From the IMG/VR virus record IMGVR_UViG_2585427970_000001: 64,000 nt of DNA; one strand, 5' to 3'. A program made the position numbers and the translations under genes. Source of the DNA: a virus (taxonomy: Duplodnaviria; Heunggongvirae; Uroviricota; Caudoviricetes). How positions within the stretch are numbered: the stretch's first letter is position 1; every line of letters starts with the position of its first letter. Positions 770 to 39,887 of the stretch are shown piece after piece. The notes beneath the pieces were generated by a model. That model saw only the letters and a program-made list of their open reading frames with translations, was not told the origin of the DNA and ran no database searches.

Positions 770-975
770 ATAGCTTTTATCGATAAGTATTATTAGTTAT
801 TCTGTTTATGGCCTTTAGTATATTTAGTCTTTTTTGCTTGCTTTTGATCTAGGTTAATAAAAGGTGCATTTTATAAACTTTTTTGTTTTTTTATTTTTAA
901 TTTATTTTATATTGCCGACAAAGTGTTATACCAGCATAAAATTCTAAATTTTATTTTCAATGTAGCACAATATTC

Positions 976-1479: not shown

Positions 1480-1784
1480 ATCAGAGAAGGACTGTCTATT
1501 CATAGATAAAATAATATCTATATAGGCATTTCTGCATGTTATAAAAATTGCACCTATAGCAATTGTGTTGGTAAACTATCTTTTTCGTTTATAAGGAGGC
1601 GTTAATAAAAAAGTCGCAACTAGGTGTTAATTTTTTTCACTATGTATCGGTTATGTGGTCTTGATGATAGTGAAAAGTTATGGATAAAGCTGACATTAAA
1701 TAATTATACAGATAACAAATTCTCAAAATATTATCTCATTGAGATTTTAACTGTAGCTGGTGCGGTAATTTACTGAAGGTATTT

Positions 1785-4700: not shown

Positions 4701-7700
4701 ATCAATACGAAGGTTGCACAGGGAACGCTGCTGGAAGCCAGTGGGCAGCGGTCAGTGCTCTTCCGTATTGAAGACGGGGCAAAACAGATTGGCTCTCTGC
4801 AGATGAAAACCTCCGGGACAGGCAGCCGGGGGATCTGGGCCACCGGTAAAGGCAGTGATGTACAGGCGGAGGCCGGCAGTGATTTCCAGATCCTGGGGGA
4901 CCTAGCTCAGGGATTGTATGTCACTGGCGGTGCAACAGCGACCCTGAAACAGGGGATATCCGTTGATCTTGTGGGTGACGGGGCCGTGGTCGCGGAAGTG
5001 GACGGTAATGAGTACGCGCTCGATGGCAGTATTACACAAACGAATACTGGCTCGGTTATTACCAATGAGGCAGATATCTCTTCGCCGCTGAATAATGCCA
5101 AGGGCTTTATTACGCGTAATCAGGGACTGTTGATTAACAGCGGCAACATTGATTTCACTGCCGGTACCGATAATATCGGCGTCTGGGTTGATAACGGTCG
5201 CTTTGAAAATACGGGAAACCGTATTGCGGTCAATGGTGTTGCTTTATTTGTTGAAGGCGCACAGTCTCAGATCACCAGCACGGGAGGGGATATCGTCGCT
5301 GTGGACGGTGAGGCTGCCATTAAGCTGGGGGCGGGCGCGTCACTGAACCTGGCAGGGAGTGGGCTGGGAACGATTGAGGGCCAGAAAAATGCACATGGCA
5401 TCCTGCTGGATACAGGGGCTGTGGGGCTGGTTATTGATGGTGCGAAAATTAATGTGAATGCTGCAGGTGCGGTTGGTCACGGGATTGAGAACCGCGCAGA
5501 AATTGAAGGCATTCAGTTAACCAATACGACTGAAATTAATGTGGCTGATGGCATTGGTGTGCGTACTTCAGCTTCGCTGGCTAAGACCAACAGCGGCACT
5601 ATTAATGTAGATGGCAGCGGAATTGCACTGGCGTTCCGGAAAGCTGACGGAAGTGAAACCGATAATAACCTGGATATGTCTGACTCCGGCGGATTAGTCA
5701 TTAATCTGAAAGGCACGGGCGGCACGGGTATTTTCGCCAACACTAAAGATGGTGCTGTCGTGAAGAGTGGTGCAAGTGTCAATGTTACACAGGCCGATGG
5801 CGGTTCCGCTCTGGTGGTTAACAATGCGGCCAGTGAAGTGGTTCAGAGCGGTAATCTCATTTCTGTTTCTCTGAATCATGCTGTAGTGGATGCATCAAAA
5901 GCACTGTCCTTTACCAATACAGGTCAGATTAAAGCCGCGTCCGCTGCCGGGACTGCAATGGCGTTTGATGACGCCGTGAATACCACCGTACTGAATGACA
6001 GCGGTGCTGAAATTCAGGGGGTTGTGGCTCTGAACGGCGGTGATAACACATTTACCAATAAAGGCAGTATTACCGGAACCGTCAGTGCAAAAGATGGCAA
6101 CAACACATTGTTATTTGATGACGGCAGCACACTGACAGGTGAAGCGACTGCAGGAAACGGCAATAACAATGTAACGCTTAACGGCAGGACACATGTTGAC
6201 CAGGTGATTGCAGGTACAGGACAGAATACCTTCACCATTAAAGGTGAAGGGGCAACCTGGGATCTGCTGGATGGCGGGCAGGGAGATTCTGATTCCCTGA
6301 TTTTTGATAACGCCATTCATACGCTGGATTCTGCTGCAAAGATACAGAACTTTGAACATGTCGGGCTGAAAAATGGTTCCGTTGTCACCCTGAAGGAGGC
6401 ACTGGTGCTGACGGACGGTGGCGCCGGGGCGGGCTCTGTCGATATTGAATCGGGCAGTGAACTGAGCATTACCCCTGCCACAGCAGGCGACTTTACCTTT
6501 GATCCATTGTTAACGGGCAAAGGCACGCTGTCCGCTCAGCTTGATGCCGACACCTCTGCTTTTGAATTCAGCCATAACGTCGGGGATCAGTTTGCCGGCA
6601 CCCTGAAACTGGGCACCAGCAGTTTTGCGCTGGAAGGGCTGAATACGAAGGGGTTGACCCATGCCATGTTGGTGTCTGAAACCGGAAATATCACAACGGT
6701 TGGCTCCGGTGTTCAGAGGATTGGCGGTCTTGGATTCAGTGGCGGAACACTGAATTTTGGTTCTGTCAGCCCGGGAGATATTGTTGCCGGCAACCGTATT
6801 GAAACCTCTGCCGCAGGTACACTGGATCTTCGCGGTCAGGGCACAATTCAGGTCACCATGCCGGTGGTGGTTAATGATATTCCGGTGGTTGATACCCGTA
6901 AGAATCTGCTTGAGCAGGACGATGCGCAGACCCTGGTCACACTGGTGGATGCTAAGGGAACCGTTACCGGCACCGGTGGACAGTTGCAACTGGTGGATGA
7001 AAATGGCCAGGTCATTTCTCACAGTCAGACGTTCGATGTGACTCAGGGCGGTGAAGTGGTGGCCCAGGGGAACTATGACTACAAGATGCTGGGAAGTTCC
7101 GACGGTATTAACGGTGATGGGCTGTATATCGGCTATGGCCTGAAATCGCTGAATTTGCAAGGGACAGGTGATAAAGCGCTGGTGCTGACCCCGAGAGCGA
7201 ACGCACAGGGGCTGCAGTCAGATCTCGGTGCTCAGTTAACGGGAACAGGGGATCTGGCGATAGACGCTGTGGGGCAGGTTGTCACACTGTCCAACGGTGG
7301 TAATAACTACACCGGTGATACGCTGGTGCGCAGCGGCACACTGCAGATGGCAAATGATAATGTGCTTGGCGCTACAGGCAGCCTGAACGTTGCCAGCAAT
7401 GCCGTCTTCAGAACAGACGGATACAGCCAGACGGTGGGTGCACTGCAGACAGAAACGGGAGCGCACATTCAGCTTGATAGCGGTAGTGTACTCACGGTCA
7501 GCGGCACGCAGCGTCAGCCGGGCGATAATAATGGTGGCATCATTGAAAACAATGTGCTGACCGGAGACGGTACGCTGGCTGTCACGGGCAGCAATCTGAC
7601 GGTACATGGCACCAATATCGGGTTCTCCGGTAATGTCAGCCTTACCCGGGGTTCGCTGGTTGAAATGAACGGCGCACAGGGGCTGGGAAGTCTGGGGACC

Positions 7701-9734
7701 GTCAGCTTTGAAAGCCTGAATGACCGTCTGGCGATTGATATCGCCGACGGTAGCGGAGTCAGCAGTAACCTGAGTAAATCGCTTTCCGGAGAAGGTTCAG
7801 TGGACATACTGAACACGACTGATCTGACGCTTTCCGGGGATAACAGTAATTTCAGCGGTGAATTCCGTGTGCAGAAAGATGCTGCTATGCGGGCTTCAGA
7901 TGAAAAACACCTGGGCACCGGGCTGATTGACAGCGAGGGTGTCACCTGGCTTACTGCCAGCGACAGCTGGTTGCTGAAAAATGACATTACGGGTTCCGGT
8001 GCGCTGGTGAAACAGGGGGCGGGTAATCTGATCATTAATCATGAGCTGGCTTATACCGGTGATACCACTGTTGAGAACGGTGTCCTGATTGTCGGTGATG
8101 ATTCAGTCACCAGCGCCGCTGATGCGACGCTGTCAGGCTCCGGAAATATTCATGTTCTCAATGGCGGCACACTCAGTGGGCAGGGTACCGTTGCAGGTCA
8201 TGTAAATAACCAGGGAACGCTGGCATCACTGAATGCACTTTCAGGCTATGAGAACGCAGAAGTAAGCAATTTTACGGTTGGCTCACTGACCAATACCGGC
8301 GTCATTCGTCTGGCCGGTGGTAAGACAGGAAATACCCTGACCGTAAATGGCGATTACACCGGTGGCGGTACGTTAATTATCAATACCGTGCTGGGGGATG
8401 ATACCTCTGCCACTGACAAATTGATTGTCACGGGTAACACTTCCGGCGATACCGGCGTGGTGGTGAATAACGTCCGGGGCCAGGGTGCTCAGACCGCTGA
8501 CGGCATTGAGATTGTGCATGTCGGTGGTCAGTCTGACGGTAACTTCAGACTGGAGAATCGTGCTGTGGCCGGGGCATGGGAATATTTCCTGCATAAAGGT
8601 AATGCGGGTGGTACCGACGGTAACTGGTATCTGCGCTCTGAATTGCCGCCGGAGCCGGGGACAAAACCGGAGACAAAACCGGAGACAAAACCGGAGACAA
8701 AACCGGAGACAAAACCGGAGACAAAACCAACACCGGATAAACCTGTGCAGACGGTCTATCGCCCGGAGGCTGGCTCATATATTTCGAACATTGCGGCGGC
8801 TAACACGCTGTTCAACACCAGAATGCACGATCGTGAGGGGGAAACTTACTATACCGACGTGTTTACTGGTGAGAAAAAAGCAACCAGTATGTGGATGCGT
8901 CATGTTGGCGGTCATAATCGCTGGAAGGACAGTAGTTCACAACTGAATACGCAAAGCAACCGCTATGTTGTGCAACTGGGTGGCAGCATTGCACAGTGGA
9001 CTGACGGTCAGGAGCGTCTGCAGCTGGGTATTATGGCCGGTTACGGGAATGAGAAGAGCTCCACGACATCCTCGGTTTCGGGATATAAATCTAAAGGCTC
9101 GATCAGCGGTTACAGTACCGGTTTATACGGAACGTGGCAGCAGAATGACGGCAATGACACCGGGGCTTATGTTGACACCTGGATCCAGTACGGCTGGTTT
9201 AATAATACTGTTAATGGTGAAAAACTGGCGGCGGAGTCCTGGAAATCCCGTGGATTTACCGGTTCAGTGGAAGCAGGTTATACCTTCAAAGCCGGCGAAT
9301 TTACCGGCAGTCAGGGAAGTCACTATGACTGGTATATTCAGCCACAGTCCCAGCTTACGTGGATGAATGTAAGAGCCGGCGAACATAAGGAGAAAAACGG
9401 CACGAAAGTTCAGCTTAACGGAGACGGCAATATCCAGAGTCGTCTGGGCGTCAGAACTTACCTGAAAGGTAAGAGTGCGTCTGATGACAATAAGGCGCAT
9501 CAGTTCGAGCCTTTTGTGGAGGTTAACTGGATCCATAATACACAGGACTGGAGTGTCAAAATGGATAATACGGTACTCAGTCAGGACGGAGCCACAAATA
9601 TTGCTGAAGTCAAAACGGGGGTTCAGGGTAAATTGTCAGACAACCTGAATATCTGGGGCAATGTTGGCGTTCAGGTCGGCGATAAAGGGTACAGTGATGC
9701 CCAGGCAATGCTGGGTATTAAATATACATTTTAA
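1785..9734 (+). CDS. Type Va (AIDA-I/Ag43-like) autotransporter adhesin, 2649 aa
   Basis: N-terminal extended signal peptide region MNKIYKVIWNHSTQQW...AFA; long Gly/Thr/Asn-rich beta-helix-type passenger; (PETK)n linker; C-terminal beta-barrel with YRPEAGSYI...MWMRHVGGHNRW... ending GIKYTF. Confidence 0.9.
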   Translation: MNKIYKVIWNHSTQQWDVVSELTGNKKKCKSARLNLALAAALFTGSMAVNCSSAFADISLDSAWRPAQNNNLVGAETVNGTTENIIGPISVVSGSSGLVGMTVDEAKAEGYITAGDDLTGLLYIDTGGRTKALQYWDAATGAYRTVQVYDNDAFSQRAAGSSANELISGFAPDAGFFYKTRFVTVTNGGTANIDVGADFIGRYFKDTQLAVADGAGSTVNWNSENEFYLQAAATSTNGLTYTATIDSKAYAGTFTDWQGQQHQVNSQADLQQYNDYLTQAIVDGKLTASQYETEFNRAIITTTHTYDVDRTAGGKIDPAIYQAGIGTLAVLEARNGGTARLSSTGKLTGILPSVGRGAGIIARSGGTGINEGIIDATGIAMRAYGNSTIVNDGTIYSGINNSKHGRHGEGMVAIDADSLAINNGVINIRPYKVATVNQDGINTAMLVAGGGEGINNGTINITADASVIDSKGLTRGISVGDGGSFTNASTGKITVGVAEDGSAAHSAVGSVAIEVAQGATRVINEGTILLGEGAQGNYGISASNVGAVNTVINKGTITVEGHDSDTPALNVGMFANNSTGLKNTGVINVNGLNSAGLQVINGGQIASDGTVNVGGVDISSGFRNYGAWVEGTGSRVDISGEISLTGDGAVGVFAKDGGDLTLSGNGAVVFGGSNQVGFYVYGDGSTIHNTGNSVMDVSTENSTLFRIASGAVYRGGTGASSDLTASGKNSYALVATGRSDTGTASTVTSGGMTINLTGEGATAVLVEGGAQGSIDSNATINMDNASAIAGIADGNGYDISGNLINPKDKTTLLTAGAQLSSSQDKVTGYIARNGATLENTGNITFTGKNTTGIRVEEGAAGTNSGNILVQDGGVGLLARGSQDATTINNTGNLVLSGGNNANRTTGIKASGAATTVNMTAGTLDLQGQGAIGVEVSEQGTVNLEGTAIPKFAADDSGITDQIAFRIIGDGATINTKVAQGTLLEASGQRSVLFRIEDGAKQIGSLQMKTSGTGSRGIWATGKGSDVQAEAGSDFQILGDLAQGLYVTGGATATLKQGISVDLVGDGAVVAEVDGNEYALDGSITQTNTGSVITNEADISSPLNNAKGFITRNQGLLINSGNIDFTAGTDNIGVWVDNGRFENTGNRIAVNGVALFVEGAQSQITSTGGDIVAVDGEAAIKLGAGASLNLAGSGLGTIEGQKNAHGILLDTGAVGLVIDGAKINVNAAGAVGHGIENRAEIEGIQLTNTTEINVADGIGVRTSASLAKTNSGTINVDGSGIALAFRKADGSETDNNLDMSDSGGLVINLKGTGGTGIFANTKDGAVVKSGASVNVTQADGGSALVVNNAASEVVQSGNLISVSLNHAVVDASKALSFTNTGQIKAASAAGTAMAFDDAVNTTVLNDSGAEIQGVVALNGGDNTFTNKGSITGTVSAKDGNNTLLFDDGSTLTGEATAGNGNNNVTLNGRTHVDQVIAGTGQNTFTIKGEGATWDLLDGGQGDSDSLIFDNAIHTLDSAAKIQNFEHVGLKNGSVVTLKEALVLTDGGAGAGSVDIESGSELSITPATAGDFTFDPLLTGKGTLSAQLDADTSAFEFSHNVGDQFAGTLKLGTSSFALEGLNTKGLTHAMLVSETGNITTVGSGVQRIGGLGFSGGTLNFGSVSPGDIVAGNRIETSAAGTLDLRGQGTIQVTMPVVVNDIPVVDTRKNLLEQDDAQTLVTLVDAKGTVTGTGGQLQLVDENGQVISHSQTFDVTQGGEVVAQGNYDYKMLGSSDGINGDGLYIGYGLKSLNLQGTGDKALVLTPRANAQGLQSDLGAQLTGTGDLAIDAVGQVVTLSNGGNNYTGDTLVRSGTLQMANDNVLGATGSLNVASNAVFRTDGYSQTVGALQTETGAHIQLDSGSVLTVSGTQRQPGDNNGGIIENNVLTGDGTLAVTGSNLTVHGTNIGFSGNVSLTRGSLVEMNGAQGLGSLGTVSFESLNDRLAIDIADGSGVSSNLSKSLSGEGSVDILNTTDLTLSGDNSNFSGEFRVQKDAAMRASDEKHLGTGLIDSEGVTWLTASDSWLLKNDITGSGALVKQGAGNLIINHELAYTGDTTVENGVLIVGDDSVTSAADATLSGSGNIHVLNGGTLSGQGTVAGHVNNQGTLASLNALSGYENAEVSNFTVGSLTNTGVIRLAGGKTGNTLTVNGDYTGGGTLIINTVLGDDTSATDKLIVTGNTSGDTGVVVNNVRGQGAQTADGIEIVHVGGQSDGNFRLENRAVAGAWEYFLHKGNAGGTDGNWYLRSELPPEPGTKPETKPETKPETKPETKPETKPTPDKPVQTVYRPEAGSYISNIAAANTLFNTRMHDREGETYYTDVFTGEKKATSMWMRHVGGHNRWKDSSSQLNTQSNRYVVQLGGSIAQWTDGQERLQLGIMAGYGNEKSSTTSSVSGYKSKGSISGYSTGLYGTWQQNDGNDTGAYVDTWIQYGWFNNTVNGEKLAAESWKSRGFTGSVEAGYTFKAGEFTGSQGSHYDWYIQPQSQLTWMNVRAGEHKEKNGTKVQLNGDGNIQSRLGVRTYLKGKSASDDNKAHQFEPFVEVNWIHNTQDWSVKMDNTVLSQDGATNIAEVKTGVQGKLSDNLNIWGNVGVQVGDKGYSDAQAMLGIKYTF
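8655..8726 (+). repeat. 6 x 12-bp in-frame tandem repeat (CCGGAGACAAAA) encoding (PETK)n in the autotransporter linker
   Basis: Direct read: one CCGGGGACAAAA unit followed by five CCGGAGACAAAA units. Confidence 0.9.
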
Positions 9735-9781
9735 TCACATAGTGGCAGGAGGATCCCTCCTGCCACATCCGGGTAGTCATA

Positions 9782-10324
9782 ATGAGTTCTGTAATGAAAT
9801 TTTCTGTTGCTAATGCAGTATTGTTGCTGTTGCTGATTGGATTTACTGGTGTTATTTATATGAATAAATCAAAAGAAATTGCAGTTGTTAATATTGATGC
9901 TGTTTATAATCAGTCTTCTGCCGGAGAACTGGTCAGAACGCATCTGAGTGAAGTTAAGATTATTCTTGAAAAGGGATACAAGGATGCGCTAAAAGCATTC
10001 GCAGATAATGAAAATAAAGATGTGCTGCTTCTTGATGCCAGACAAAAACTGGAAAGACAATATGTTATCGAGGAGCACAATGCAAAGATGGTATTATCCC
10101 GTGCAATAGATAATGCCATAAATAACTGGAGAAAAGATAACACAGGAAATATTGCTGTATTGTCTTCAGGTGTTGTGCTTTCACATAACGATTCAGCCGA
10201 TATCACAAAAGAAATCATGGCTCTGGTTGAAAAAGAACATCTGGTTTTTAGTCAGTTACCGAAAGTGGAAGTGAAAGCTCAGGAGGAGATAAAAAGTAAA
10301 GAGGGAACGGAAGAAGGTAAATAA
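9782..10324 (+). CDS. Skp/OmpH-like periplasmic chaperone (alternative start at 9794)
   Basis: N-terminal hydrophobic signal/anchor, then a charged coiled-coil-like body (...EIAVVNIDAVYNQSSAGELVRTH...NIAVLSSGVVLSHNDSADITKEIMALV...) typical of OmpH-family chaperones; sits directly after the autotransporter. Confidence 0.55.
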   Translation: MSSVMKFSVANAVLLLLLIGFTGVIYMNKSKEIAVVNIDAVYNQSSAGELVRTHLSEVKIILEKGYKDALKAFADNENKDVLLLDARQKLERQYVIEEHNAKMVLSRAIDNAINNWRKDNTGNIAVLSSGVVLSHNDSADITKEIMALVEKEHLVFSQLPKVEVKAQEEIKSKEGTEEGK

Positions 10325-10361
10325 TCATTAGTTCCCGGTAACGTCTGTTAAGGCGATTCAC

Positions 10362-10402
10362 AAGCCGGTATCTGTTATCACTCAGATACCGGCTTGTTGT
10401 TG
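10362..10402 (+). terminator. Terminator-like hairpin after the Skp-like gene
   Basis: AAGCCGGTATCTG / AGATACCGGCTT inverted repeat followed by a GTTGTTG tract. Confidence 0.45.
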
Positions 10403-10577
10403 AGTCCGGGAACCGTCCGGCAACAGCGTCAGATATCAGGGGGAGAAAGACTGGTTCAGTAACGTTATCATCTTCGGACTCAAATTCTGATAAATGACAG
10501 GGATATGCGACATGCATTACTTAACGTATACCATCTGTAGTCAGATAAAAATTTATCTTTGATGTGGGGAATGACAT

Positions 10578-10964
10578 ATGGAAATGAAAAAAAACATTTG
10601 CTATATAAAGAGCGAAATAAAAGAGCATAGTATTACTGTTCACCTGTGGGTATTTGCATCGCTGACAAAAATTGAGTGTGATGTGCTTGAGTTAATAATG
10701 AAAGGGTATAGCTCTACAAAAATATCACACCTCCGGAATCGTAGTGATAAAACTGTATCGTCACAAAAGAGACAGATATACAAAAAACTGGGTGTCCGAA
10801 ATGATCTTACATTCTGGATTGATATTTTTTTGTCACCATCGATAAGAACAGTTTTTTACCGGAAAGGGGACGTTGTTCACATAGGAAATGAAATTTTCGG
10901 AATGTCCGGTGATGCATTAAAGCTTTGGAATAATTCACTGAACACATCACCGGACAAAAAGTGA
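10578..10964 (+). CDS. LuxR/GerE-type HTH regulator (HTH-only, 128 aa)
   Basis: ...LTKIECDVLELIMKGYSSTKISHLRNRSDKTVSSQKRQIYKKLGV... matches the LuxR-family HTH pattern. Confidence 0.55.
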   Translation: MEMKKNICYIKSEIKEHSITVHLWVFASLTKIECDVLELIMKGYSSTKISHLRNRSDKTVSSQKRQIYKKLGVRNDLTFWIDIFLSPSIRTVFYRKGDVVHIGNEIFGMSGDALKLWNNSLNTSPDKK

Positions 10965-11034
10965 GTATTAATAATTACTGCTGTATCAGTTTGAAGAAGG
11001 TTTAATTAACAAACTGGTTATCATATACACGCCG

Positions 11035-11064
11035 GCTCAGACCGGCGATTTCTTTTTTGTATGT
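11035..11064 (+). terminator. Rho-independent terminator (CGCCGG-loop-CCGGCG, then T-run)
   Basis: Perfect 6-bp GC stem at 11035-11040 / 11047-11052 followed by ATTTCTTTTTTG. Confidence 0.7.
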
Positions 11065-11259
11065 AGATCTTCTATGCTTCTCACGTGTTTGTGAATTAAA
11101 ACACCTAAAGGTGTTAAGCGCTAGCAAGAAGGAGGGTGGTGGCAGTAATGTTGTATTTGGCATGCTCACTCACATAATCAATGACGCAAGAAGTGGGAAA
11201 TTTTATGATTGTCCGGTTATTTAATACGCAAAGAGCTGGTGCTTTATGCCTGTGAAGTT

Positions 11260-11290
11260 TATAATTGTGTACACATGACGAGTACACGAG
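11260..11290 (+). promoter_or_regulatory. phd-doc promoter/operator: TATAAT -10 followed by palindromic Phd operator half-sites (TGTGTACACA, GAGTACAC)
   Basis: TATAAT at 11260-11265; perfect 10-bp palindrome at 11266-11275 and a related site at about 11280-11287, immediately upstream of phd. Confidence 0.6.
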
Positions 11291-11296
11291 GTGTTT

Positions 11297-11518
11297 ATGC
11301 AATCCATTAACTTCCGTACCGCGCGCGGCAACCTTTCTGAAGTGCTCAACAATGTTGAAGCCGGGGAAGAGGTTGAAATCACCCGCAGAGGCCGTGAGCC
11401 AGCAGTAATTGTCAGCAAGGCTACTTTCGAAGCCTACAAAAAAGCGGCGCTGGATGCTGAATTTGCATCCCTGTTTGACACCCTGGACTCCACCAACAAG
11501 GAACTGGTTAACCGATAA
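11297..11518 (+). CDS. phd: Phd antitoxin (prevent-host-death), P1-type
   Basis: Matches P1 Phd as remembered: [73 protein letters not shown]. Confidence 0.95.
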
Positions 11519-11898
11519 TGAGGCATATATCACCGGAAGAACTTATTGCGCTTCATGATGCGAATATAAACCGCTACGGCGGCCTGCCGGGAATGTCAGA
11601 TCCGGGTAGGGCAGAGGCCATTATCGGGAGAGTTCAGGCCAGAGTTGCCTACGAAGAGATCACCGACCTTTTCGAAGTCTCCGCCACCTACCTGGTGGCT
11701 ACAGCGAGAGGGCATATATTCAATGATGCCAATAAGCGTACCGCGCTAAACAGTGCGTTGTTATTTCTACGCCGTAACGGGGTGCAGGTATTTGATTCAC
11801 CTGAACTGGCAGACCTTACCGTAGGGGCTGCGACCGGAGAGATATCTGTATCTTCTGTCGCCGACACGTTACGTAGATTGTATGGTTCCGCGGAGTAG
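11518..11898 (+). CDS. doc: Doc toxin (death on curing; Fic-fold kinase)
   Basis: 126 aa, [22 protein letters not shown]...; ATG overlaps the phd stop (TAATG), the classic phd-doc arrangement. Confidence 0.95.
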
Positions 11899-12082
11899 AT
11901 TAATGGCACGTAAATACAACAAATTGTCCCGTGAAGCGTTAAAGATGCTTCTTGATGGCGTGAGTCGCCGCGAGGTAAAGCAATACCTGGTTGGTAAGCA
12001 AATTGGAGCCAGGACTGCTATTGCTGTGTTATGCCGTCAGGAAATGGTTGTGCTTAAACAGAGAATGCCGGGCAGCAGATAA
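11882..12082 (+). CDS. Small post-doc protein (P1 PdcA-like by position)
   Basis: 66-aa ORF immediately after doc; named by synteny with P1 only. Confidence 0.35.
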
Positions 12083-12109
12083 AGCCCAATCAGTGATGAA
12101 AGGTGTGAT

Positions 12110-13153
12110 GTGAAAGCCGTAATTACTCCCTTTGTACAAAAAGAGCTTGGCGTCGCCACATTCAAAGTGGATCAGGAAGTCAGAAAGCTGGTGGAGGCTG
12201 GCCGTAAATTTATTATGGAGCCGGTGCCGCGTGAGTTAATCGAGCACATGGACGACGGCCTCGTTGTTTCCGAGCAAACCATGGCAACAAATGAGGCGTT
12301 GCAGCCGTTTTTTAACAGCGATGAGCTGTTTCGTCGTATTGGTGGAATTGACGCGCTGGTGGCGTGGTTGCGCAGGAAAGAGGGGCGATGCCAGGCCGCA
12401 GATCGTAGTTGGTGTGACAACCATATTGTCCACGCTGAACGAGACAATAGCGCGGTGTTGCTGTGCTGGCATCACGATAACCATTACTGGATGCGTGGTT
12501 TTAATGAGCTGAAAGAAACGCTGCATAATAATCGCGTTAACTGGATACTGGATGTCGCCCGTCAGGAAATGGGGCTTTCAGATGGCTATGATTTAAGTAT
12601 TCAGGAACTGTGCTGGTGGGCTTTCATGCGCAACATGATGCACCTGATGCCGGAAGAAGTTTGCCGTATATCAATAAATAAGATGAAGGCTGCTCCGCAG
12701 GATAGCGGACCTTTGAAAGAGGCGGATATTCGCCCGTATGACGATCGTGCTACAGCATATGTTCAGATGATGGAAGAACGCGCCGCGCCGATGCGTGCAA
12801 AAGTATGCCCTGTGGATGTTGACTCCGACCCTGGCACGGCGCATTTCAAAATACCAAAACTGCAATCGCTAAAATTACCTGAGTACATGGACTTTGTTGC
12901 TTCCCGTCCATGCTGTGGGTGTGGAGCGGCGGGAGCTGGCGCTCACATTACGCCTTATATCGTTCGTCATAGTCGATTATGCGCGCATGACATTTACGCA
13001 ATTCCTCTGTGCCAGTCATGCCAGCGTGATATTGAGCGTGACCGCGATAATTGGGAGAAGACGCACGGTAGGCTGGCGATGCATCAACGATTGTTCTTTG
13101 ATTACGCGCTTGGAGTCGGCGCTATCACAAGTCACTCGTCTAGCGTTAGATAA
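12110..13153 (+). CDS. Post-doc protein (P1 PdcB-like by position), Cys-rich C-terminus
   Basis: 347-aa ORF between doc and lpa; C-terminal CCGC...CQSC cysteine cluster; function unknown. Confidence 0.45.
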
Positions 13154-13154
13154 A

Positions 13155-13171
13155 ATTGCTCTAATGTATTG
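13155..13171 (+). promoter_or_regulatory. C1 operator-like site (14/17 to ATTGCTCTAATAAATTT) upstream of lpa
   Basis: ATTGCTCTAATGTATTG; the conserved ATTGCTCTAAT core is present. Confidence 0.45.
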
Positions 13172-13241
13172 CTATTTCTTTAATCGATGGTATTATATTC
13201 CACGTTGATTAGTTGACATGGGCTAATCAGTAGGTGACAGG

Positions 13242-13694
13242 ATGTTACTTAACTGGCAGGGACGCCACTTCATGGAAATAAATCACTCACGAATAACATC
13301 GTATGAGATTGCGGATTACATGATCCGCACTAAATCTCTTCTATCAGCGAAAGAACTCGCAGCAATTCTTGAAAAGGAATACCCGCATCTGGATGTCGAT
13401 AAGCGCGATGTTTATCTGCGCTTAAAGGCTATCGCTGTGTCTAAGTATTCGTCTGTTTTGATTGATGACAGTACACGCCCACGTAGATTTCAGATCCACT
13501 CTCTGAATCCTGAATTCTTTCGCCGTAGCCGCGCTCCGCGCCGGTTTGATGAAAAACTCCAGAACGAACTCTATATGACGCAGGACGAAAAGGAACGCCG
13601 GGAGCACCAGCCTTGGGTAATGGCGCGTCAACTTTTCAATAAGGTGGCCCGTCAGCACCGTCATTACGGTAATGCCACATCCGCACGTATCTGA
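13242..13694 (+). CDS. lpa: Late promoter activator Lpa-like protein
   Basis: 150-aa basic protein in the P1 position between pdcB and pacA, preceded by a C1 operator-like site. Confidence 0.55.
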   Translation: MLLNWQGRHFMEINHSRITSYEIADYMIRTKSLLSAKELAAILEKEYPHLDVDKRDVYLRLKAIAVSKYSSVLIDDSTRPRRFQIHSLNPEFFRRSRAPRRFDEKLQNELYMTQDEKERREHQPWVMARQLFNKVARQHRHYGNATSARI

Positions 13695-13779
13695 TTGATT
13701 GCTTGCCCGTTCCGGGCCTTTTGACATGTGACTTTCGTTACCCTCGCGTCAAAAAGAGTTTTTACGAAAGGAAGCATAA

Positions 13780-14973
13780 GTGACCTGGGACGATCACAAG
13801 AAGAATTTTGCTCGCCTGGCGCGAGATGGTGGTTACACCATCGCACAGTATGCCGCCGAGTTTAATCTTAACCCTAATACCGCACGTCGTTATCTCCGTG
13901 CCTTCAAAGAAGACACCAGGACTGCGGACAGCCGCAAGCCAAATAAGCCAGTCAGGAAGCCACTAAAAAGCATGATCATTGATCACTCTAATGATCAACA
14001 TGCAGGTGATCATATTGCGGCTGAAATAGCGGAAAAACAGAGAGTTAATGCCGTTGTCAGTGCCGCAGTCGAGAATGCGAAGCGCCAAAATAAGCGCATA
14101 AATGATCGTTCAGATGATCATGACGTGATCACCCGCGCCCACCGGACCTTACGTGATCGCCTGGAACGCGACACCCTGGATGATGATGGTGAACGCTTTG
14201 AATTCGAAGCTGACGATTACCTGATAGATAACGTTGAAGCGCGGAAGGCCGCGCGCGCTATGTTGCGTCGGTCCGGGGCCGATGTTCTGGAAACCACTCT
14301 TCTTGAAAAGTCTCTTTCTCATCTCCTTATGCTGGAGAACGCCAGGGATACGTGTATTCGCCTGGTGCAGGAAATGCGCGATCAGCAAAAAAACGATGAT
14401 GAAGGTACTCCGCCTGAATACCGTATCGCGAGCATGCTAAACAGCTGTTCCGCGCAGATAAGCAGTCTGATCAACACCATTTACAGCATCCGGAATAACT
14501 ATCGAAAAGAAAGCCGGGAGGCGGAAAAGCACGCTTTATCTATGGGGCAAGCTGGCATTGTTAAGCTGGCATACGAACGAAAGCGTGAAAATAACTGGTC
14601 AGTGCTGGAAGCAGCTGAATTCATCGAGGCGCATGGCGGGAAAGTGCCGCCCCTGATGCTGGAGCAAATCAAAGCCGATCTGCGTGCTCCTAAGACCAAT
14701 ACCGATGATGAGGAAAGGCAAACTGCCGTCGGTGGCCCTTCTCTTGAAGATCTGGACAAAGTTGCGCGAGAACGGGCCGCCAACCGCCGCGCCGATGCCG
14801 CATTGTGGATTGAGCAACGTAGGGAAGAAATCGCCGATATCGTTGATACAGGCGGTTATGGAGATGTTGATACTGAAGGTGTATCAAACGAACCATGGCT
14901 GGAACAAGACCTGGACGAAGACGAGGAGGAAGACGAAGAAGTTACCCGCAAGCTATACGGGGATGATGATTAA
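13780..14973 (+). CDS. pacA: Terminase small/pac-recognition subunit PacA (GTG start)
   Basis: 397 aa; contains the pac-type clustered TGATCA/G hexamers in its 5' part; followed directly by pacB. Confidence 0.8.
13971..14160 (+). promoter_or_regulatory. P1-type pac site: two clusters of Dam-methylatable GATC hexamers (4 + 4) flanking the presumed cleavage region
   Basis: GATC at 13974, 13981, 13993, 14008 and at 14104, 14117, 14127, 14154, all in TGATCA/G-type context. Confidence 0.7.
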
Positions 14974-15358
14974 TGGCCAGAAGTTGCGTAACGGATCCAC
15001 GTTGGCGCGAGCTGGTGGCGCTATATCGTTATGACTGGATTGCGGCCGCTGATGTTTTGTTCGGCAAAACACCTACCTGGCAGCAGGATCTGATTATTGA
15101 GTCTGTGCAGGAACAGGGTAGCAAGACATCTGTTTCGTCTGGTCACGGTACCGGGAAATCAGACATGACTTCTATCATGATCATGTTGTTCATAATCATG
15201 TATCCCGGTGCCCGCGCCATTATCGTTGCGAACAAAATTCAGCAGGTAATGACCGGTATATTCAAGTACATCAAGATAAACTGGGCTACTGCCACCAGCC
15301 GTTTTCCATGGCTTGCTGATTATTTTGTTCTGACAGAAACCGCTTTCTATGAGGTTAC
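14973..15358 (+). pseudogene. pacB: pacB (terminase large subunit), 5' fragment interrupted by an IS element
   Basis: Reading frame ...ETAFYEVT runs straight into the IS left inverted repeat at 15359. Confidence 0.85.
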
Positions 15359-15412
15359 TGAACCGCCCCGGGAATCCTGGAGACTAAACTTCCTGAGAAA
15401 GAGGTAAACAGG

Positions 15413-15739
15413 ATGACTAAAAATACTCGTTTTTCCCCCGAAGTCCGTCAACGGGCAGTCCGTATGGTTCTGGAAAGTCAGAGCGAATATGACTCACAAT
15501 GGGCGACAATTTGTTCCATTGCTCCAAAGATTGGCTGTACGCCGGAGACTCTGCGTGTCTGGGTTCGCCAGCATGAGCGGGATACCGGGGGCGGTGATGG
15601 AGGGCTCACCACCGCTGAACGTCAGCGTCTGAAAGAGCTGGAACGTGAAAATCGTGAACTGCGCCGCAGTAACGATATCCTTCGCCAGGCTTCCGCTTAT
15701 TTTGCGAAGGCGGAGTTCGACCGCCTCTGGAAAAAGTGA
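15413..15739 (+). CDS. IS3-family transposase OrfA (HTH)
   Basis: 108 aa, [23 protein letters not shown]...; leucine-zipper-like C-terminus. Confidence 0.9.
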
Positions 15740-16626
15740 TGCCACTGCTGGATAAGCTGCGTAAGCTGTACGGGGTCGGACCGGTATGCAGTGAACTACA
15801 TATTGCCCCGTCAACGTATTACCACTGTCAGCAACAGCGACATCATCCGGATAAACGCAGTGCCCGTGCGCAGCGCGATGACTGGCTGAAGAAAGAGATA
15901 CAGCGCGTATACGATGAAAATCACAAGGTATACGGTGTGCGTAAAGTCTGGCGTCAGTTGTTACGGGAAGGTATCAGAGTGGCCAGATGCACTGTGGCAC
16001 GTCTCATGGCGGTTATGGGACTTGCCGGTGTTCTCCGGGGTAAAAAGGTCCGTACGACCATCAGCCGGAAAGCCGTTGCCGCAGGCGACCGCGTAAACCG
16101 TCAGTTCGTGGCAGAACGACCTGACCAGCTGTGGGTGGCTGATTTTACTTACGTCAGCACATGGCGGGGCTTCGTCTATGTGGCGTTCATCATTGATGTG
16201 TTTGCCGGATACATCGTGGGGTGGCGGGTCTCATCGTCCATGGAAACGACATTCGTGCTGGATGCACTGGAGCAGGCGTTATGGGCCCGTCGACCGTCCG
16301 GCACGGTCCATCACAGTGATAAAGGTTCTCAGTATGTATCGCTGGCCTACACACAGCGGCTTAAGGAAGCCGGATTACTGGCATCAACAGGAAGTACAGG
16401 CGACTCGTATGACAACGCGATGGCGGAGAGCATCAATGGTCTTTACAAAGCGGAGGTAATACACCGTAAGAGCTGGAAAAACCGTGCAGAAGTGGAACTG
16501 GCCACACTCACGTGGGTGGACTGGTATAACAATCGACGATTGCTGGAAAGGCTGGGCCATACTCCTCCGGCAGAAGCAGAAAAAGCTTATTATGCTTCCA
16601 TCGGAAACGATGATCTGGCAGCCTGA
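15736..16626 (+). CDS. IS3-family transposase OrfB (DDE catalytic domain), expressed by -1 frameshift as OrfAB
   Basis: 296 aa with an integrase-type core (...[10 protein letters not shown]...[15 protein letters not shown]...); overlaps orfA in the -1 frame. Confidence 0.9.
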
Positions 16627-16668
16627 GTTCACAGATAAAACACTCTCCAGGAAACCCGGGGCGGTTCA

Positions 16669-17770
16669 TACTGGTAAAGGTGTATGGACTGTAGTACCGA
16701 AGGGCTTTCGTCTGGGAAGTGAAGAAGCTCTCGCCGGTGAACACGCAGATCATCTTCTGTATATTATCGATGAAGCCTCCGGTGTCAGTGATAGAGCTTT
16801 CGGTATCATCACCGGTGCTCTTACCGGACAGGATAACCGCATCTTATTACTGTCACAGCCTACACGCCCAAGCGGCTATTTCTACGATACTCACCATAAA
16901 CTGGCCAAGCGTCCTGGTAACCCTGATGGCGTTTATACGGCGATCACGCTTAACAGTGAGGAATCACCGCTGGTAACGCCAGCATTTATCAAAATGAAGC
17001 TGGCGGAGTACGGCGGGCGCGATAACCCTATGTACATGATTAAGGTACGCGGCCTATTCCCTAAATCACAGGATGGCTTCCTTCTTGGACGTGATGAGGT
17101 TGAACGTGCAACGCGGCGGAAAGTCAAGATTGCCAAAGGATGGGGCTGGCTTGCATGTGTGGACGTTGCTGGTGGTACGGGAAGGGATAAGTCCGTTATC
17201 AATATCATGATGGTGTCCGGCCAGAGAAATAAACGCCGTGTAATCAACTATCGAATGCTGGAATACACAGACGTTACAGAAACGCAGCTTGCCGCCAAAA
17301 TTTTCGCAGAATGTAATCCTGAGCGATTCCCAAATATCACCATAGCGATAGACGGCGATGGGCTGGGTAAAGCAACAGCGGATCTGATGTACGAGTATTA
17401 TGGTATTACCGTACAGCGTATACGCTGGGGTAAAAAGATGCATAGCCGTGAAGATAAGAGCCTGTACTTTGATAAACGTGCTTATGCCAACGTTCAAGCC
17501 GCAGAGGCCGTAAAATCTGGTCGTATGAGACTGGATAAGGGTAATGAAACTATTGAGGAAGCGTCGAAAATCCCTGTAGGGATTAACTCCGCAGGTCAAT
17601 GGAAGGTGATGAGTAAGGAGGATATGAAGAAAAAACTCAACCTGCACTCACCAGACCATTGGGATACATATTGTTTCGCTATGCTGGCGGATTATGTTCC
17701 CCAGGACGAAGTGCTTAGCGTCGAAGACGAAGCGCAGGTTGATGAAGCTCTTGCATGGCTTAATGAATGA
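16669..17770 (+). pseudogene. pacB: pacB, 3' fragment
   Basis: After removing the IS and one TAC copy the frame reads through continuously (...FYEVT|[12 protein letters not shown]...); the two parts sum to about 496 aa. Confidence 0.85.
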
Positions 17771-17773
17771 ATA

Positions 17774-17790
17774 TTTGCTCTAATAAATTG
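17774..17790 (+). promoter_or_regulatory. C1 operator-like site (15/17) upstream of the icd-ant module
   Basis: TTTGCTCTAATAAATTG versus consensus ATTGCTCTAATAAATTT. Confidence 0.55.
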
Positions 17791-17799
17791 TGTTTTTTA

Positions 17800-17945
17800 A
17801 CTACCGATGTTACATTGAACCTGACCTCTTGCGCCTTGAGGCATTTTCGGTTTATGCTTATCAGGCACCTCAGTAAAACGGGTGCCGGGATTGGCCTCCC
17901 GCTTAAGTCTAAGGCGATACAGACGCCGCTCGCGTCTTTTTTTTG
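17800..17945 (+). ncRNA. Candidate small regulatory RNA (c4-like antisense RNA region) ending in a strong intrinsic terminator
   Basis: No protein-coding signal; terminator GACGC-CGCTC-GCGTC plus T8 at 17921-17945; contains GTCTAAGG, also present in the icd leader, and a stretch partly complementary to the icd RBS. Confidence 0.3.
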
Positions 17946-18109
17946 TATCGGCGTACACGCACACCTCTACAATGGTGGGCTGTATGGGGCTACCTTCGGG
18001 TAGGCTGGTTACCTTGGACGCCAGTAAGGCCAACTCCGTACAGTCCACCGCCAGCAAGATTGGTCTCTTCTGCGGTGGTTACATACCAACGTCTAAGGAG
18101 GCTGCCAAT

Positions 18110-18331
18110 ATGGCTACTATCCCTACCCCAACTCATCCTGAATTTATCTGGCGCTTTTACTCCTGCCAAAAACGTCACTATCACTTCGTTATTGCACCGA
18201 CAGAAGATGAGGCACGTTCTCAGCTTCCTGACGCCCCATGTATTTTCTCTGCCCGTTTTTCCACTGATTCACGCAATTCTCTCAGTTACTGGTGCCTCCC
18301 TGTTAACGCTTCTGCTCAGGAGGGACTATGA
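18110..18331 (+). CDS. Icd-like small protein (host cell-division inhibitor family)
   Basis: Strong SD (AAGGAGG) 7 nt upstream; motif FIWRF...VIAPTEDEARSQL...FSARF resembles Icd-like proteins; stop overlaps the ant start. Confidence 0.5.
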   Translation: MATIPTPTHPEFIWRFYSCQKRHYHFVIAPTEDEARSQLPDAPCIFSARFSTDSRNSLSYWCLPVNASAQEGL

Positions 18332-19446
18332 GAACATCGTTAGTTACCCGTGAAGAGATGATCGAGGCAATTGAACAGCACACTGCCTGTATCAGTACCA
18401 GGGATATACCAGGCGTTATTGCCAACTACTTCATGATCACCAAACAACTTTACCGGAGAAAGGACAAGAACGCGGTTCACCGTATCCTGTTGTCTGATAT
18501 CCGCGAATACCTGCTCGAACAGGGTCATCTGAATTACGCAACCGTCGCAGCCGAATCACGCAAGGAGGCACACAGAATGAAAGCAACTAACGTTAAATCA
18601 GAAAAAATTCATGCACCTTCAGTTCAGGAATCGGAGCTGGTGGTTGTTCAGAATCAGTCTGATGAAATTCCCGTTCTGGAATGGCAGGGAGTGCGTGTAG
18701 TGACAACCGAGACTCTTGCTAGAGGGTATGGGACAGAAACAATCCGTATTCGCCAAAATCATCATGAGAACAAAGTACGCTTTGTTGAAGGGAAGCACTT
18801 TTTCAAAGTTGAAGGAGAATCATTGCGCGAGTTGAAGCACAGAGTAGCTTTAAACTACTCTGTAAAAATTGCTCGCAATGTTCGCTCACTCACCCTCTGG
18901 ACAGAACGCGGCGCAGCCCGCCACGCTAAAATGCTCGAAACCGATCAGGCATGGGCATTCTTTGAAAAACTGGAAGACAGCTACTTCCGGCAAAAAGAAC
19001 AGCAACCGGTTGCAATCCCCCAGACGCTTCCAGAAGCTCTGCGCCTGGCTGCCGAACTGGCTGAACAAAAGCAGCTTCTGGAACAGAAAGCCCACCAGCT
19101 AAATCAGCAGCTGGTGGCCGCCGCTCCTAAAGTCGATTTTGCCGACCGGGTATCAGTAGCTAAAGGGATCCTGATTGGGAATTTTGCAAAGGTTGTTGGA
19201 CTTAAGCAAAACGCGCTGTTTGCCTGGTTACGGGAGAACGGCATCCTGATAGCGTCCGGTGGACGTAAAAATGTGCCGTTCCAGCAGTACATCAATGCGG
19301 GGTATTTCACGGTGAAAGAAGTGGTGCTGGATGATGAAGATGGCTACCAGATACGGTTGACGCCTCAATTAACGGGTAAAGGCCAGCAGTGGTTGACGCG
19401 TAAACTGCTCGATGCTGGCTTGTTAAAACCGGTGGCGGCTGAATAA
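18328..19446 (+). CDS. Antirepressor-like protein (ORF6N/KilA-N type domain plus C-terminal KilAC-type domain)
   Basis: 372 aa; ...IPVLEWQGVRVVTTETLARGYG...FFKVEGESLRELK... and C-terminal ...VAKGILIGNFAKVVGLKQNALFAWLRENGIL...; the true start could be the internal Met at 18577. Confidence 0.6.
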   Translation: MRTSLVTREEMIEAIEQHTACISTRDIPGVIANYFMITKQLYRRKDKNAVHRILLSDIREYLLEQGHLNYATVAAESRKEAHRMKATNVKSEKIHAPSVQESELVVVQNQSDEIPVLEWQGVRVVTTETLARGYGTETIRIRQNHHENKVRFVEGKHFFKVEGESLRELKHRVALNYSVKIARNVRSLTLWTERGAARHAKMLETDQAWAFFEKLEDSYFRQKEQQPVAIPQTLPEALRLAAELAEQKQLLEQKAHQLNQQLVAAAPKVDFADRVSVAKGILIGNFAKVVGLKQNALFAWLRENGILIASGGRKNVPFQQYINAGYFTVKEVVLDDEDGYQIRLTPQLTGKGQQWLTRKLLDAGLLKPVAAE

Positions 19447-19478
19447 TGGAAGAATGCCCGGTTGATGCCGGGCATAAT

Positions 19479-24590: not shown

Positions 24591-27503
24591 TTATGGTAAT
24601 GCGCTCTTGATTAACTGATAAATATCATCATTAGCAAACTGCGTTCTGAATTCAACTTTAACAGACTGACTTATTTGATTGAAAAGCGCTTGGGCATGTT
24701 CAATTTTCCGTTTTTCTTCAAGCCGTAAACTATCCTTACTATCTACGTTTTTTGTTTCAATGATAAAATTAAGATAATCACCTTCCGCTGTTTTTACAAC
24801 ATAAGCAAAATCGGGTGAGTAAGTGTATCCACCAGCTACCGGGATCTTAATAGAATTCTTCGGTATCTTTGAAAAAACAACAACAGACTGGATCTCTCTA
24901 TCTGTTATATTACGCCTTTCAAGCTCTGAATCATAAAAAACTTCTTCAAAAAGATAAGTATCTAATGGTGCTTTTGCATTATCCTGCAATACACCAAGAT
25001 CACTTGATAATACCTCGCCTAGAGGATTACCATCAGCATTTGTGAACTTTGTAGGATGAATTGAACCCGAAATCAAATTATATCCGAGGCTGAATTTATT
25101 AAACGAATTGTTCAACAAATACTTACTAAAACCAGATTTAATTTTTCTGATTGTTTGAATATTAAGGTATTCAGTGATATTAATAGTGTCTTTTATATCA
25201 CAAAAAACTTTATGTAAAGTACCGTGTTTAACAAAAATAGTCTGTGATAAGTTATCGAGAAACTCTCGATAGCTCATTGTGTTCAGCTTAGCAAAGTCAT
25301 CGTCATCACTGACAATGCTTTTCGACATTGCCATATCATTGTGGATGTAAATTTTATCAATGCGAGTATGAACGCCTGATTTGGTAAATCGTTCTGTTTC
25401 TTCGAGCATGAATGACTTGAAAATGGATAAAAATTCACTTTCACTGTTTATTTTGTACTCAATCACCGCTTTTTGATTGATCAAATCCCATAGTTCTTTC
25501 AGCTCACTGAACTTACCAACACGCATTTTAGTGCGTCTTTTTCCATCAGTAGCTTTTTTGATTTTACCAGGTTTCACTCCTATAGGGAATGCTGCTGGAT
25601 ATTTGGATTTTAAGCGGCTATAGGCATCTGAATCTTTGAAATTATCATTGTCATCAATGATTTCATCATTGAAAAGTTCATTCATTAGTGCTCTGGATGA
25701 AAGCTCAGGATACTGAGCCATGATTTGTTCCTTAAGCTCTTGAGTAAACTTACTTGGAACCCTTTCTTTGAAAGAACTCTCGTTGACCTCTTTAACAAGT
25801 GAGTCAACAAAATCCTTTTCTGTAAAATCAACATAATATTTAAGGGTAAAATTGCGGTCTTTCACTCGACACATGTATTCATTCACAGGAAGACGCAAAC
25901 CGCGCCCTACCTCTTGAAGCTTAGATGTGGTACTACCGCTCGAACGGAGCTTACAGATCTGAAAAACATTAGGATTATCCCACCCCTCACGCAACGTCCA
26001 TTTTGAGAAAATAAACCGACGGGGATTATCTAAAGACAGCAAAAGCTCTTTGTCATGAAGGATTTCGTTGATTTCCTGCTCGATTTTATCATCCTTATCA
26101 CTGTTATCTTTTGAGAAATAACCACCATGAACGGAAGATATATTTGTGACTGTTTTTTCAAGATAGTTTTTATAAAACGCATCTTGCTCTGTTTTTAACA
26201 GTTCATTAGCTTCTGCCAGAACGTATTCTTCGAATTTGGTCTTCAGGCTTCCGGAAATATCATTACCGTCACGATAGCCTTCAATATCGTCAATAAAGAA
26301 AAGAGTAAGAGGCTTTATGCGTGGCCTTTGTGTCAGAAGTTCTTTTTCTAACTTAAAGTGTTCTTTGACAGCCTTACGCATCATGTTATCAGCGAGTGTC
26401 TGATCGTAAGAATAGGGATTTATTGAGCTACCAATCTTCAACTCAATACCATTACTCAACACTGCTGTGCTCTTGTTTAAAGCATCAAGAGTTAAATCAT
26501 GGATCGCACTATGCGTCTTAGACAGTGATTCACCTTTAGCTAACTTAAACGATTTTTTGTTGTTGTTTTCATTCAGTTCAAATGTAGCTTCCTTTCCGTC
26601 AGATTTGACGAATTTGAGGTTTGCGTTACCATCGCCGACTATATCCTCAATATATGCATCAATACCTTTAACGAGATCATCGTTAAATGCGTCCACGGCT
26701 GTAAGACGATAAACCAGGTTCTTATAGCCTTCGCTAAAGGTTGCGCCATAGCGGATAATATATTGTGCGTTAAATTTCTCTATGTTTTCCCATGTTTTTT
26801 TACCAGTAGGAAATCTATGTGGTTCGTCAATGATGATAAATGGTTTTACAGCTCTGAGCGCGTCAACTGGAGTATTAAACTGATTATCAAGCAAGCCAGT
26901 ATCGTAAGTATCCGTTAAAGACTTAGAGTTGATCATTCCTGAGTTAATAACAAGAACGTGTATATATTTTTTATTGAAGTTACTTGCTTCAACAAAATCA
27001 TGTATAGCCTGAGGCATATACGATTTTGTATTTTTGCCAGCGTTTTTCTGACTTTCAACAACGTAAGTTCTCAGCTCACGCTTGTAATCATCCCGGAAGT
27101 GTTCTTTTAAAGCATCACTTTTTAAAAAGTTAACGGTTCCGGCCTTGATAGATAGAGTCGGAACAATGATGATAAACTTGTTAATACCAAATGATTTATT
27201 CAGGTCAAAAATAGTTTTGATATAGGTGTACGTCTTGCCTGTACCTGTCTCCATAGAAACATCAATGATGTTGCTTTTAGCATTGTGATTATCTTTTGAG
27301 TGCGCAATACCATTGAACGCCTGAACATTTTTTATATTGTTGTAGTATTGTTGTTCAGACAGCTTCAGTTCAGGATTAGCTAAAAGGCGAACAGCAACAT
27401 TATCCGTCAGGTGAGGTGTTGCGGAAACAAAAACATTCATCACCGCATCGACTCCTGCTTTCTGATGCGGCAAGTTCTTTTCGAGAGTGAACCCTTTTGA
27501 CAT
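24591..27503 (-). CDS. res: Type III restriction endonuclease, Res subunit (helicase-nuclease)
   Basis: 970 aa; Walker A-like ETGTGKTYT and DEPH box (IIIDEPHRF); start overlaps the mod stop. Confidence 0.9.
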   Translation of the reverse strand: MSKGFTLEKNLPHQKAGVDAVMNVFVSATPHLTDNVAVRLLANPELKLSEQQYYNNIKNVQAFNGIAHSKDNHNAKSNIIDVSMETGTGKTYTYIKTIFDLNKSFGINKFIIIVPTLSIKAGTVNFLKSDALKEHFRDDYKRELRTYVVESQKNAGKNTKSYMPQAIHDFVEASNFNKKYIHVLVINSGMINSKSLTDTYDTGLLDNQFNTPVDALRAVKPFIIIDEPHRFPTGKKTWENIEKFNAQYIIRYGATFSEGYKNLVYRLTAVDAFNDDLVKGIDAYIEDIVGDGNANLKFVKSDGKEATFELNENNNKKSFKLAKGESLSKTHSAIHDLTLDALNKSTAVLSNGIELKIGSSINPYSYDQTLADNMMRKAVKEHFKLEKELLTQRPRIKPLTLFFIDDIEGYRDGNDISGSLKTKFEEYVLAEANELLKTEQDAFYKNYLEKTVTNISSVHGGYFSKDNSDKDDKIEQEINEILHDKELLLSLDNPRRFIFSKWTLREGWDNPNVFQICKLRSSGSTTSKLQEVGRGLRLPVNEYMCRVKDRNFTLKYYVDFTEKDFVDSLVKEVNESSFKERVPSKFTQELKEQIMAQYPELSSRALMNELFNDEIIDDNDNFKDSDAYSRLKSKYPAAFPIGVKPGKIKKATDGKRRTKMRVGKFSELKELWDLINQKAVIEYKINSESEFLSIFKSFMLEETERFTKSGVHTRIDKIYIHNDMAMSKSIVSDDDDFAKLNTMSYREFLDNLSQTIFVKHGTLHKVFCDIKDTINITEYLNIQTIRKIKSGFSKYLLNNSFNKFSLGYNLISGSIHPTKFTNADGNPLGEVLSSDLGVLQDNAKAPLDTYLFEEVFYDSELERRNITDREIQSVVVFSKIPKNSIKIPVAGGYTYSPDFAYVVKTAEGDYLNFIIETKNVDSKDSLRLEEKRKIEHAQALFNQISQSVKVEFRTQFANDDIYQLIKSALP

Positions 27504-27505
27504 GA

Positions 27506-37158: not shown

Positions 37159-39887
<2,729 letters not shown>

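Follow-up and report, generated by a model that had tools for sequence, protein, structure and literature searches.

IS629 insertion in the terminase gene pacB

We analysed 64,000 nucleotides of the IMG/VR virus record IMGVR_UViG_2585427970_000001 (hereafter, the window), which are the last 64,000 bases of contig JMJD01000001.1 of Escherichia coli JA65 and belong to a P1-like phage-plasmid. In the window, the gene of the terminase large subunit, pacB (pacase B), is interrupted by a complete copy of the insertion sequence (IS) IS629, bounded by a true target-site duplication (TSD) of three base pairs. Very probably, IS629 transposed into the pacB of this phage-plasmid and gave rise to a prophage that would be packaging-null, maintained as a plasmid and reversible at the sequence level.

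The element spans positions 15359-16668 on the plus strand, in the same orientation as pacB, and is exactly 1310 bp long. Comparison of its termini delimited a left inverted repeat at 15359-15383 (plus strand) and a right inverted repeat at 16644-16668 (minus strand), TGAACCGCCCCGGGAATCCTGGAGA and TGAACCGCCCCGGGTTTCCTGGAGA, which match at 23 of 25 bases, the first 14 perfectly; the left end reads TGAACCGCCCCGGG, and the right end is its imperfect (23/25) reverse complement. The ends TGAACC... and ...GGTTCA agree with the 5'-TG/CA-3' termini of the IS3 family, as does the size with the 1.2-1.5 kb range of this family, and the TAC found on both sides agrees with its short (3-4 bp) TSD. Two genes are carried: orfA (15413-15739, plus strand, 327 nt, 108 aa) with the Pfam domain HTH_Tnp_1, and orfB (15736-16626, plus strand, 891 nt, 296 aa), which lies in the -1 frame relative to orfA (frames 1 and 2) and encodes HTH_21 and an rve DDE integrase core (Pfam, E=8.3e-28). 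OrfB alone scored 311.6 bits on the NCBIfam IS3 transposase equivalog NF033516 (cutoff 160). Within the orfA/orfB overlap, an AAAAAG (A5G) frameshift motif is found at 15731-15736 on the plus strand, and a -1 shift there gives a stop-free OrfAB of 404 aa. The frameshift-stimulating ALIL pseudoknot (RF01497) was detected around it at 15694-15810 on the plus strand with 116.2 bits against a gathering score of 50, covering model positions 1-117 of 117. The original prediction, made from the letters and open reading frames (ORFs) of the window, had described a 1310-bp IS3-family element with intact ends and a frameshift site inside pacB, and these results bear it out.

The name IS629 was assigned with an annotated copy as the reference, the "IS3 family IS629" of the Stx2a phage LC567824.1, from which the window copy differs at 12 of 1310 positions (99.1% nucleotide identity). 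By the ISfinder convention, elements sharing at least about 95% nucleotide identity are the same IS. The reference copy has the same length and the same orfA/orfB layout, although its TSD has 4 bp (CCAG) and that of the window copy has 3 bp. A copy named IS1203 by PGAP is 96% identical to the window element. The element is thus like the IS629 of Shigella sonnei and E. coli O157:H7, with the close isoforms IS1203 and IS3411, and nothing distinct was seen in the element itself. Many E. coli chromosomes and plasmids carry copies 100% identical to it, and 4485 of the records with a match cover at least 80% of its length. By sequence comparison, the complete identity to other copies is far beyond chance. 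From its intact parts and its identity to so many copies, the element is predicted to be competent for transposition.

Target site and reconstruction of pacB

The insertion is flanked by TAC at 15356-15358 and 16669-16671, as established by comparison of the junctions. The empty site in the closest uninterrupted homologue, on plasmid CP099053.1, is GAGGTTACTGGTAAAGG, and the same position in P1 reads GAGGTGACTGGCAAGGG; each holds a single TAC. The pair in the window is therefore a true TSD and not a chance triplet, as had been proposed. IS629 entered after the second base of codon 129 (pacB nt 384-386).

The 5' fragment of pacB (14973-15358, plus strand) comprises codons 1-128 and two further nucleotides, including the Walker A motif GHGTGKS (aa 57-63). 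The 3' fragment (16672-17770, plus strand) comprises codons 129-494 and the stop codon, with the Walker B motif LLYIIDE (aa 157-163) and the C-terminal part. When 14973-15358 is joined to 16672-17770, one frame of 1485 nt and 494 aa results, which reads ...FYEVT|GKGVWT..., so the claim that removal of the IS and one TAC restores the frame stands. The join originally suggested, 14973-15358 with 16669-17770, needs correction, as it keeps both TAC copies and adds one Thr codon; the right-hand part starts at 16672.

The rejoined PacB was aligned to P1 PacB, the comparison that the original prediction had proposed as a check. The two proteins are colinear over all residues (494/494 aligned, 494 vs 494 aa), with 89% identity and no gaps. 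Against the intact PacB of CP099053.1, the rejoined protein is 100% identical in amino acids, and the 3 nucleotide differences are all synonymous. It matches PHROG 2, "terminase large subunit", with E=3.3e-40 over aa 33-474, across the junction. No Pfam or NCBIfam model matched PacB, and in the sequence search of the PDB its best matches were insignificant (E about 0.8). The identity of PacB was set by PHROGs and by direct alignment to P1. Relative to P1, pacB is a mosaic: identity is 94.9% along the run that takes in pacA and the initial 386 nt of pacB, but drops to 82% in the 3' 1.1 kb. Many P1-like plasmids are 98-99.8% identical to either part.

In the interrupted gene, the frame starting at 14973 ends at 15407 (plus strand) and would give a product of 144 aa, composed of PacB aa 1-129 and 15 aa from the left end of the IS. 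The insertion separates Walker A (aa 57-63) from Walker B (aa 157-163) and everything downstream. As read from the sequence, the ATPase fold of the terminase is divided between two fragments, and the predicted product of the gene is now a 144-aa stub. A second open frame leaves the right end of the IS and continues into the 3' part of pacB (16484-17770, plus strand, 428 aa); it has a GTG start and was called mechanically as an ORF only.

The packaging region upstream of the insertion

The order lpa - pacA (with pac) - pacB is that of P1, and positions 11144-15360 are colinear with the P1 region from humD to pacB at 94.9% identity. The late promoter LPpac lies upstream of pacA at 13726-13744 on the plus strand, and the surrounding 13710-13785 is identical at 76 of 76 bases to the P1 region in which LPpac is annotated. 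The gene of the pacase A subunit, pacA, is intact (13780-14973, plus strand, 397 aa); its product aligns to P1 PacA without gaps, with 385 matching positions, and its hit to PHROG 1711, "terminase", has E=4.9e-203.

The pac site inside pacA (13973-14131) consists of HEX4, the IHF site, the cleavage region and HEX3. The TGATC[A/G] hexamers start at 13973, 13980, 13992 and 14007 in HEX4 (span 13973-14012) and at 14103, 14115 and 14126 in HEX3 (span 14103-14131). All seven hexamers (4+3) and the cleavage region are conserved relative to P1, with 2 substitutions in the 211 bp compared. The prediction of an intact pac site and pacA is upheld by these comparisons.

One of the changes, A>G at 14040, alters the CAA core of the annotated IHF site in pac, from AAACAAAGAGTTA to AAACAGAGAGTTA. 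The same A>G occurs in plasmid pIDPH8234-2, and CP099053.1 has another change two bases downstream. We considered the A>G as a new lesion and rejected it, since the change is shared with another plasmid and represents a lineage polymorphism.

Occurrence and age of the insertion

An exact look-up of the 144-aa junction-specific product in a large assembly collection returned two NCBI assemblies only, both of E. coli JA65. The carriers are JMJD01000001.1 (121,080 bp, PacBio) and JFFN01000013.1 (30,158 bp, Illumina). E. coli JA65 is a blood isolate from a urosepsis patient, for which JMJD is the PacBio and JFFN the Illumina assembly (PMC4271156). No identical insertion was found in the RefSeq complete E. 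coli genomes, the PLSDB plasmids or the INPHARED phages. A scan of the GTDB representative genomes for the exact junction gave 0 matches, a result of little weight, as that set holds one genome per species.

These sequence data support a recent and strain-specific insertion, because the IS is 100% identical to other copies, PacB has no amino acid change and the insertion occurs in a single strain, in both of its assemblies. The recent origin claimed in the original prediction thus agrees with the wider search.

Predicted consequences for the phage-plasmid

In P1, pacB is essential: CRISPRi against it lowered the efficiency of plating to <1.2e-7, and amber mutants are reported (PMC10695390). 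The pacase consists of PacA and PacB, which bind the hexamers and cleave pac, as stated in the passage of PMC10028697 that cites Skorupski et al. 1994. A prophage without packaging is expected, since pacB is essential for P1 plaque formation and both PacA and PacB are needed for pac cleavage and headful packaging. By analogy with P1, a packaging-defective prophage kept as a plasmid would be the expected outcome, and we regard this as a sound inference.

The course of events would be as follows. A copy of IS629 would have transposed into codon 129 of pacB, the gene of the terminase large subunit (pacase B), in the uropathogenic E. coli JA65, with duplication of TAC. The split gene would yield the 144-aa stub, and a downstream fragment, if any, would be without the P-loop. 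The prophage would still replicate, partition and stay repressed as a plasmid; after induction, infectious particles filled with DNA would not be formed. The window includes phd/doc, c1 (283 aa) and cre, and the P1 functions lpa, pacA, c1, cre, darB, portal and pro have full-length ORFs there. The window ORFs colinear with ddrA and with the darA/lysis region of CP099053.1 are full-length as well.

Several points weigh against this account. The loss of packaging is a phenotype that we infer. The examined part is 64 kb of the 121-kb contig, and other lesions, or a second terminase elsewhere in the genome, may exist. From the frame at 16484-17770, a C-terminal fragment might be made, though it would be without Walker A.

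On the copy-out-paste-in route, as we read this mechanism, the donor IS copy stays in place. The exact loss of the IS and one TAC would restore wild-type pacB, since the gene has no other decay. The original prediction that precise excision could reverse the event holds at this sequence level, but it was overstated as a mechanism. Gene reactivation through precise IS excision is rare unless the IS-excision enhancer (IEE) is present (PMC9397093), so reversion by precise excision is possible and should be rare without IEE. IEE promotes IS629 excision in enterohaemorrhagic and Shiga toxin-producing E. coli (EHEC/STEC; PMC9943667), and IS600 excision likewise (PMC9397093).

If this account is right, the P1-like element of 121 kb in this urosepsis isolate has probably become a prophage unable to package DNA, which would probably spread only vertically as a plasmid, together with an autotransporter adhesin. 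The case would then be a clean and very recent example of the conversion of a phage-plasmid to a plasmid by a single IS hit, and it is relevant to counting "functional" phage-plasmids and to predicting transduction from sequence alone. The event itself is textbook: to a known IS, a known gene, and an expected signature and consequence, it adds no new element, mechanism or gene, and its kind is already known. Defective phage-plasmids have been anticipated in the literature (PMC7969092; PMC6906374).

Alternative explanations

A first alternative holds that pacB is one of several lesions in a degraded, plasmid-only P1 derivative, in which case loss of the IS would not bring back a viable phage. 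In its favour, some 57 kb of the contig falls beyond the window, the window itself has further mobile DNA as well as cargo, namely two TnpB elements and the autotransporter module of 11 kb, and P1-like plasmids without lytic functions are documented, for example pJIE250-3 (PMC6906374). However, the backbone ORFs of the window that are colinear with the intact relative CP099053.1 match it in length, both TnpB elements are intergenic, and PacB is free of amino acid decay. We consider a multiply damaged element unlikely, though with a chance large enough to be kept in mind.

A second alternative is that the split gene still gives terminase activity through fragment complementation, or that the IS acts as a regulated on/off switch of packaging. 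The in-frame ORF that leaves the IS into the 3' part of pacB would fit the former, and the IEE-dependent excision of IS600, also of the IS3 family, which reactivates lacZ in STEC O121:H19 (PMC9397093), would fit the latter. Nevertheless, the ATPase fold is broken between Walker A and Walker B, and we found no precedent of a terminase large subunit being split. As it occurs in a single strain, the insertion is not a conserved arrangement, and about 90% of the PLSDB plasmids matching pacB hold at least 80% of it in one piece. Residual activity or a packaging switch is therefore highly improbable.

The idea that the assembler misplaced a multicopy IS into pacB has a negligible probability and, on the assembled sequences, can be taken as effectively refuted. 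In its favour, IS629 is repeated in many E. coli genomes, and at either junction the Illumina contig stops some 250 bp into the element, as would be expected at a repeat. Against it, Illumina contigs extend across each of the two junctions and the PacBio contig covers the entire insertion, both with a 100% match to the window, and a complete IS with a perfect 3-bp TSD on its two sides is what real transposition leaves behind. The JA65 Illumina contigs concerned are represented in IMG/VR by UViG_2636416110_000001 (left junction) and UViG_2636416110_000003 (right junction), both 100% identical to the window. Since two independent assemblies, PacBio and Illumina, agree on the junctions, the insertion is not an assembly artefact. 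The breaks in the Illumina contigs suggest that IS629 is multicopy in the JA65 genome.

Transposition of IS629 into pacB, with the predicted loss of packaging, thus remains the explanation that we favour over damage at several sites, a functional split gene and misassembly.

Other disruptions of pacB and known systems

An intact pacB is the norm: of the 617 PLSDB plasmids with a match to the window gene, 558 have at least 80% of its length as a single stretch. Other plasmids have an IS3-family element in or beside the gene. In pIDPH8234-2 (NZ_CP077454.1, E. coli O111:H8), IS1203 is inserted in pacB nt 1104-1106 with a 3-bp TSD, GTA (positions 7107-8416 of locus L001). In pRHB14-C22_4 (CP057799.1), IS2 is inserted in nt 274-278 with a 5-bp TSD (positions 579-1909 of locus L011), and CP057815.1 gave a search result identical to that of CP057799.1. 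In the heavily deleted p812A1-65K (NZ_CP116049.1), IS629 adjoins pacB at about nt 473 (positions 8001-9310 of locus L002); unlike in the window, the left flank of the IS has been lost through flanking deletions, and the 3' end of pacB is missing as well. To judge from their different sites, the four IS3-family hits in pacB, the window included, are independent events. The TSD of the IS1203 case (GTA) and that of the window (TAC) are reverse complements of each other.

Two of these plasmids were examined as possible relatives of the window insertion. NZ_CP077454.1, the single full-coverage match, was rejected as the same insertion, since its IS1203 lies at another site. The plasmid p812A1-65K, which has a 100% identical IS beside pacB, was rejected as a descendant, since its left flank is unrelated and there is no TSD; its right flank starts 86 bp further into pacB than the junction in the window.

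The at least four independent IS3-family hits in pacB (nt 274-278, 384-386, about 473 and 1104-1106) could reflect selection rather than chance, an idea that we regard as rather improbable; the present data neither support nor exclude it. If selection were at work, a terminase knock-out would be favoured as an initial, potentially reversible step by which a phage-plasmid with cargo becomes fixed in plasmid life. It would end virion production and the loss of the element through packaging, the cargo here being an autotransporter adhesin of 2649 aa.

The amber and CRISPRi mutants of P1 pacB resemble the present case in the loss of PacB; however, they are laboratory point mutants or knock-downs of P1 itself, whereas in the window an IS has inserted naturally into a relative of P1, and the 3' part of the pacB of this relative is only 82% identical to P1 in nucleotides. 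A second known system is IS600 in lacZ of STEC O121:H19, where, as in the window, an IS3-family element hit an otherwise intact gene that could be reactivated by excision (PMC9397093); the reversal in lacZ depends on IEE, and for the window insertion an allele without the IS was not observed.

Other features of the window

The window and CP099053.1 share a colinear backbone (97-99% identity), whose genes agree in length. The differences between the two are accessory DNA: the autotransporter module, a type III restriction-modification pair, the two TnpB elements and a variable tail-fibre segment.

The type V autotransporter adhesin (1785-9734, plus strand, 2649 aa) has an ESPR signal, an AC_1 autochaperone domain and a beta-barrel, with a partial match to the ECSE_1600 family. 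It is the cargo of an 11-kb module at the left end of the window (1-11140, with flanking ORFs). The whole module was found in one of 72,556 PLSDB plasmids, NZ_CP127299.1 of an avian pathogenic E. coli, in which pacB is intact.

An immI-like C4/icd/ant module occupies 17771-19478, in the interval between pacB and c1, which in P1 measures only 24 bp. The module contains an isrK-like RNA (17865-17942), the C4 antisense RNA (17968-18055) and an ORF6N/KilAC antirepressor of 372 aa (18328-19446). We considered this 1.7 kb segment as a second rearrangement tied to the IS and rejected it, since the immI-like module is normal for this sub-lineage. It is also present in CP099053.1 and has been reported for RCS47 and pTZ20_1P (PMC6906374).

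Two TnpB-only elements of the IS200/IS605 type, each encoding a 402-aa RNA-guided endonuclease TnpB, lie at 39887-41189 (minus strand) and 48164-49466 (plus strand). They are inverted relative to each other, 95.7% identical and both absent from CP099053.1 at these sites. Their positions are intergenic (pro/lyz and ddrB/ddrA), with about 7 kb of P1 backbone between them. By its length, the Illumina contig of the right junction would end at about position 40,150 of the window, inside the first TnpB copy.

The EcoP1-like type III restriction-modification pair lies at 24591-29461 on the minus strand and encodes proteins of 970 aa and 651 aa, the sizes of P1 Res and Mod. At this position, CP099053.1 has a 2-kb icd/ant segment instead.

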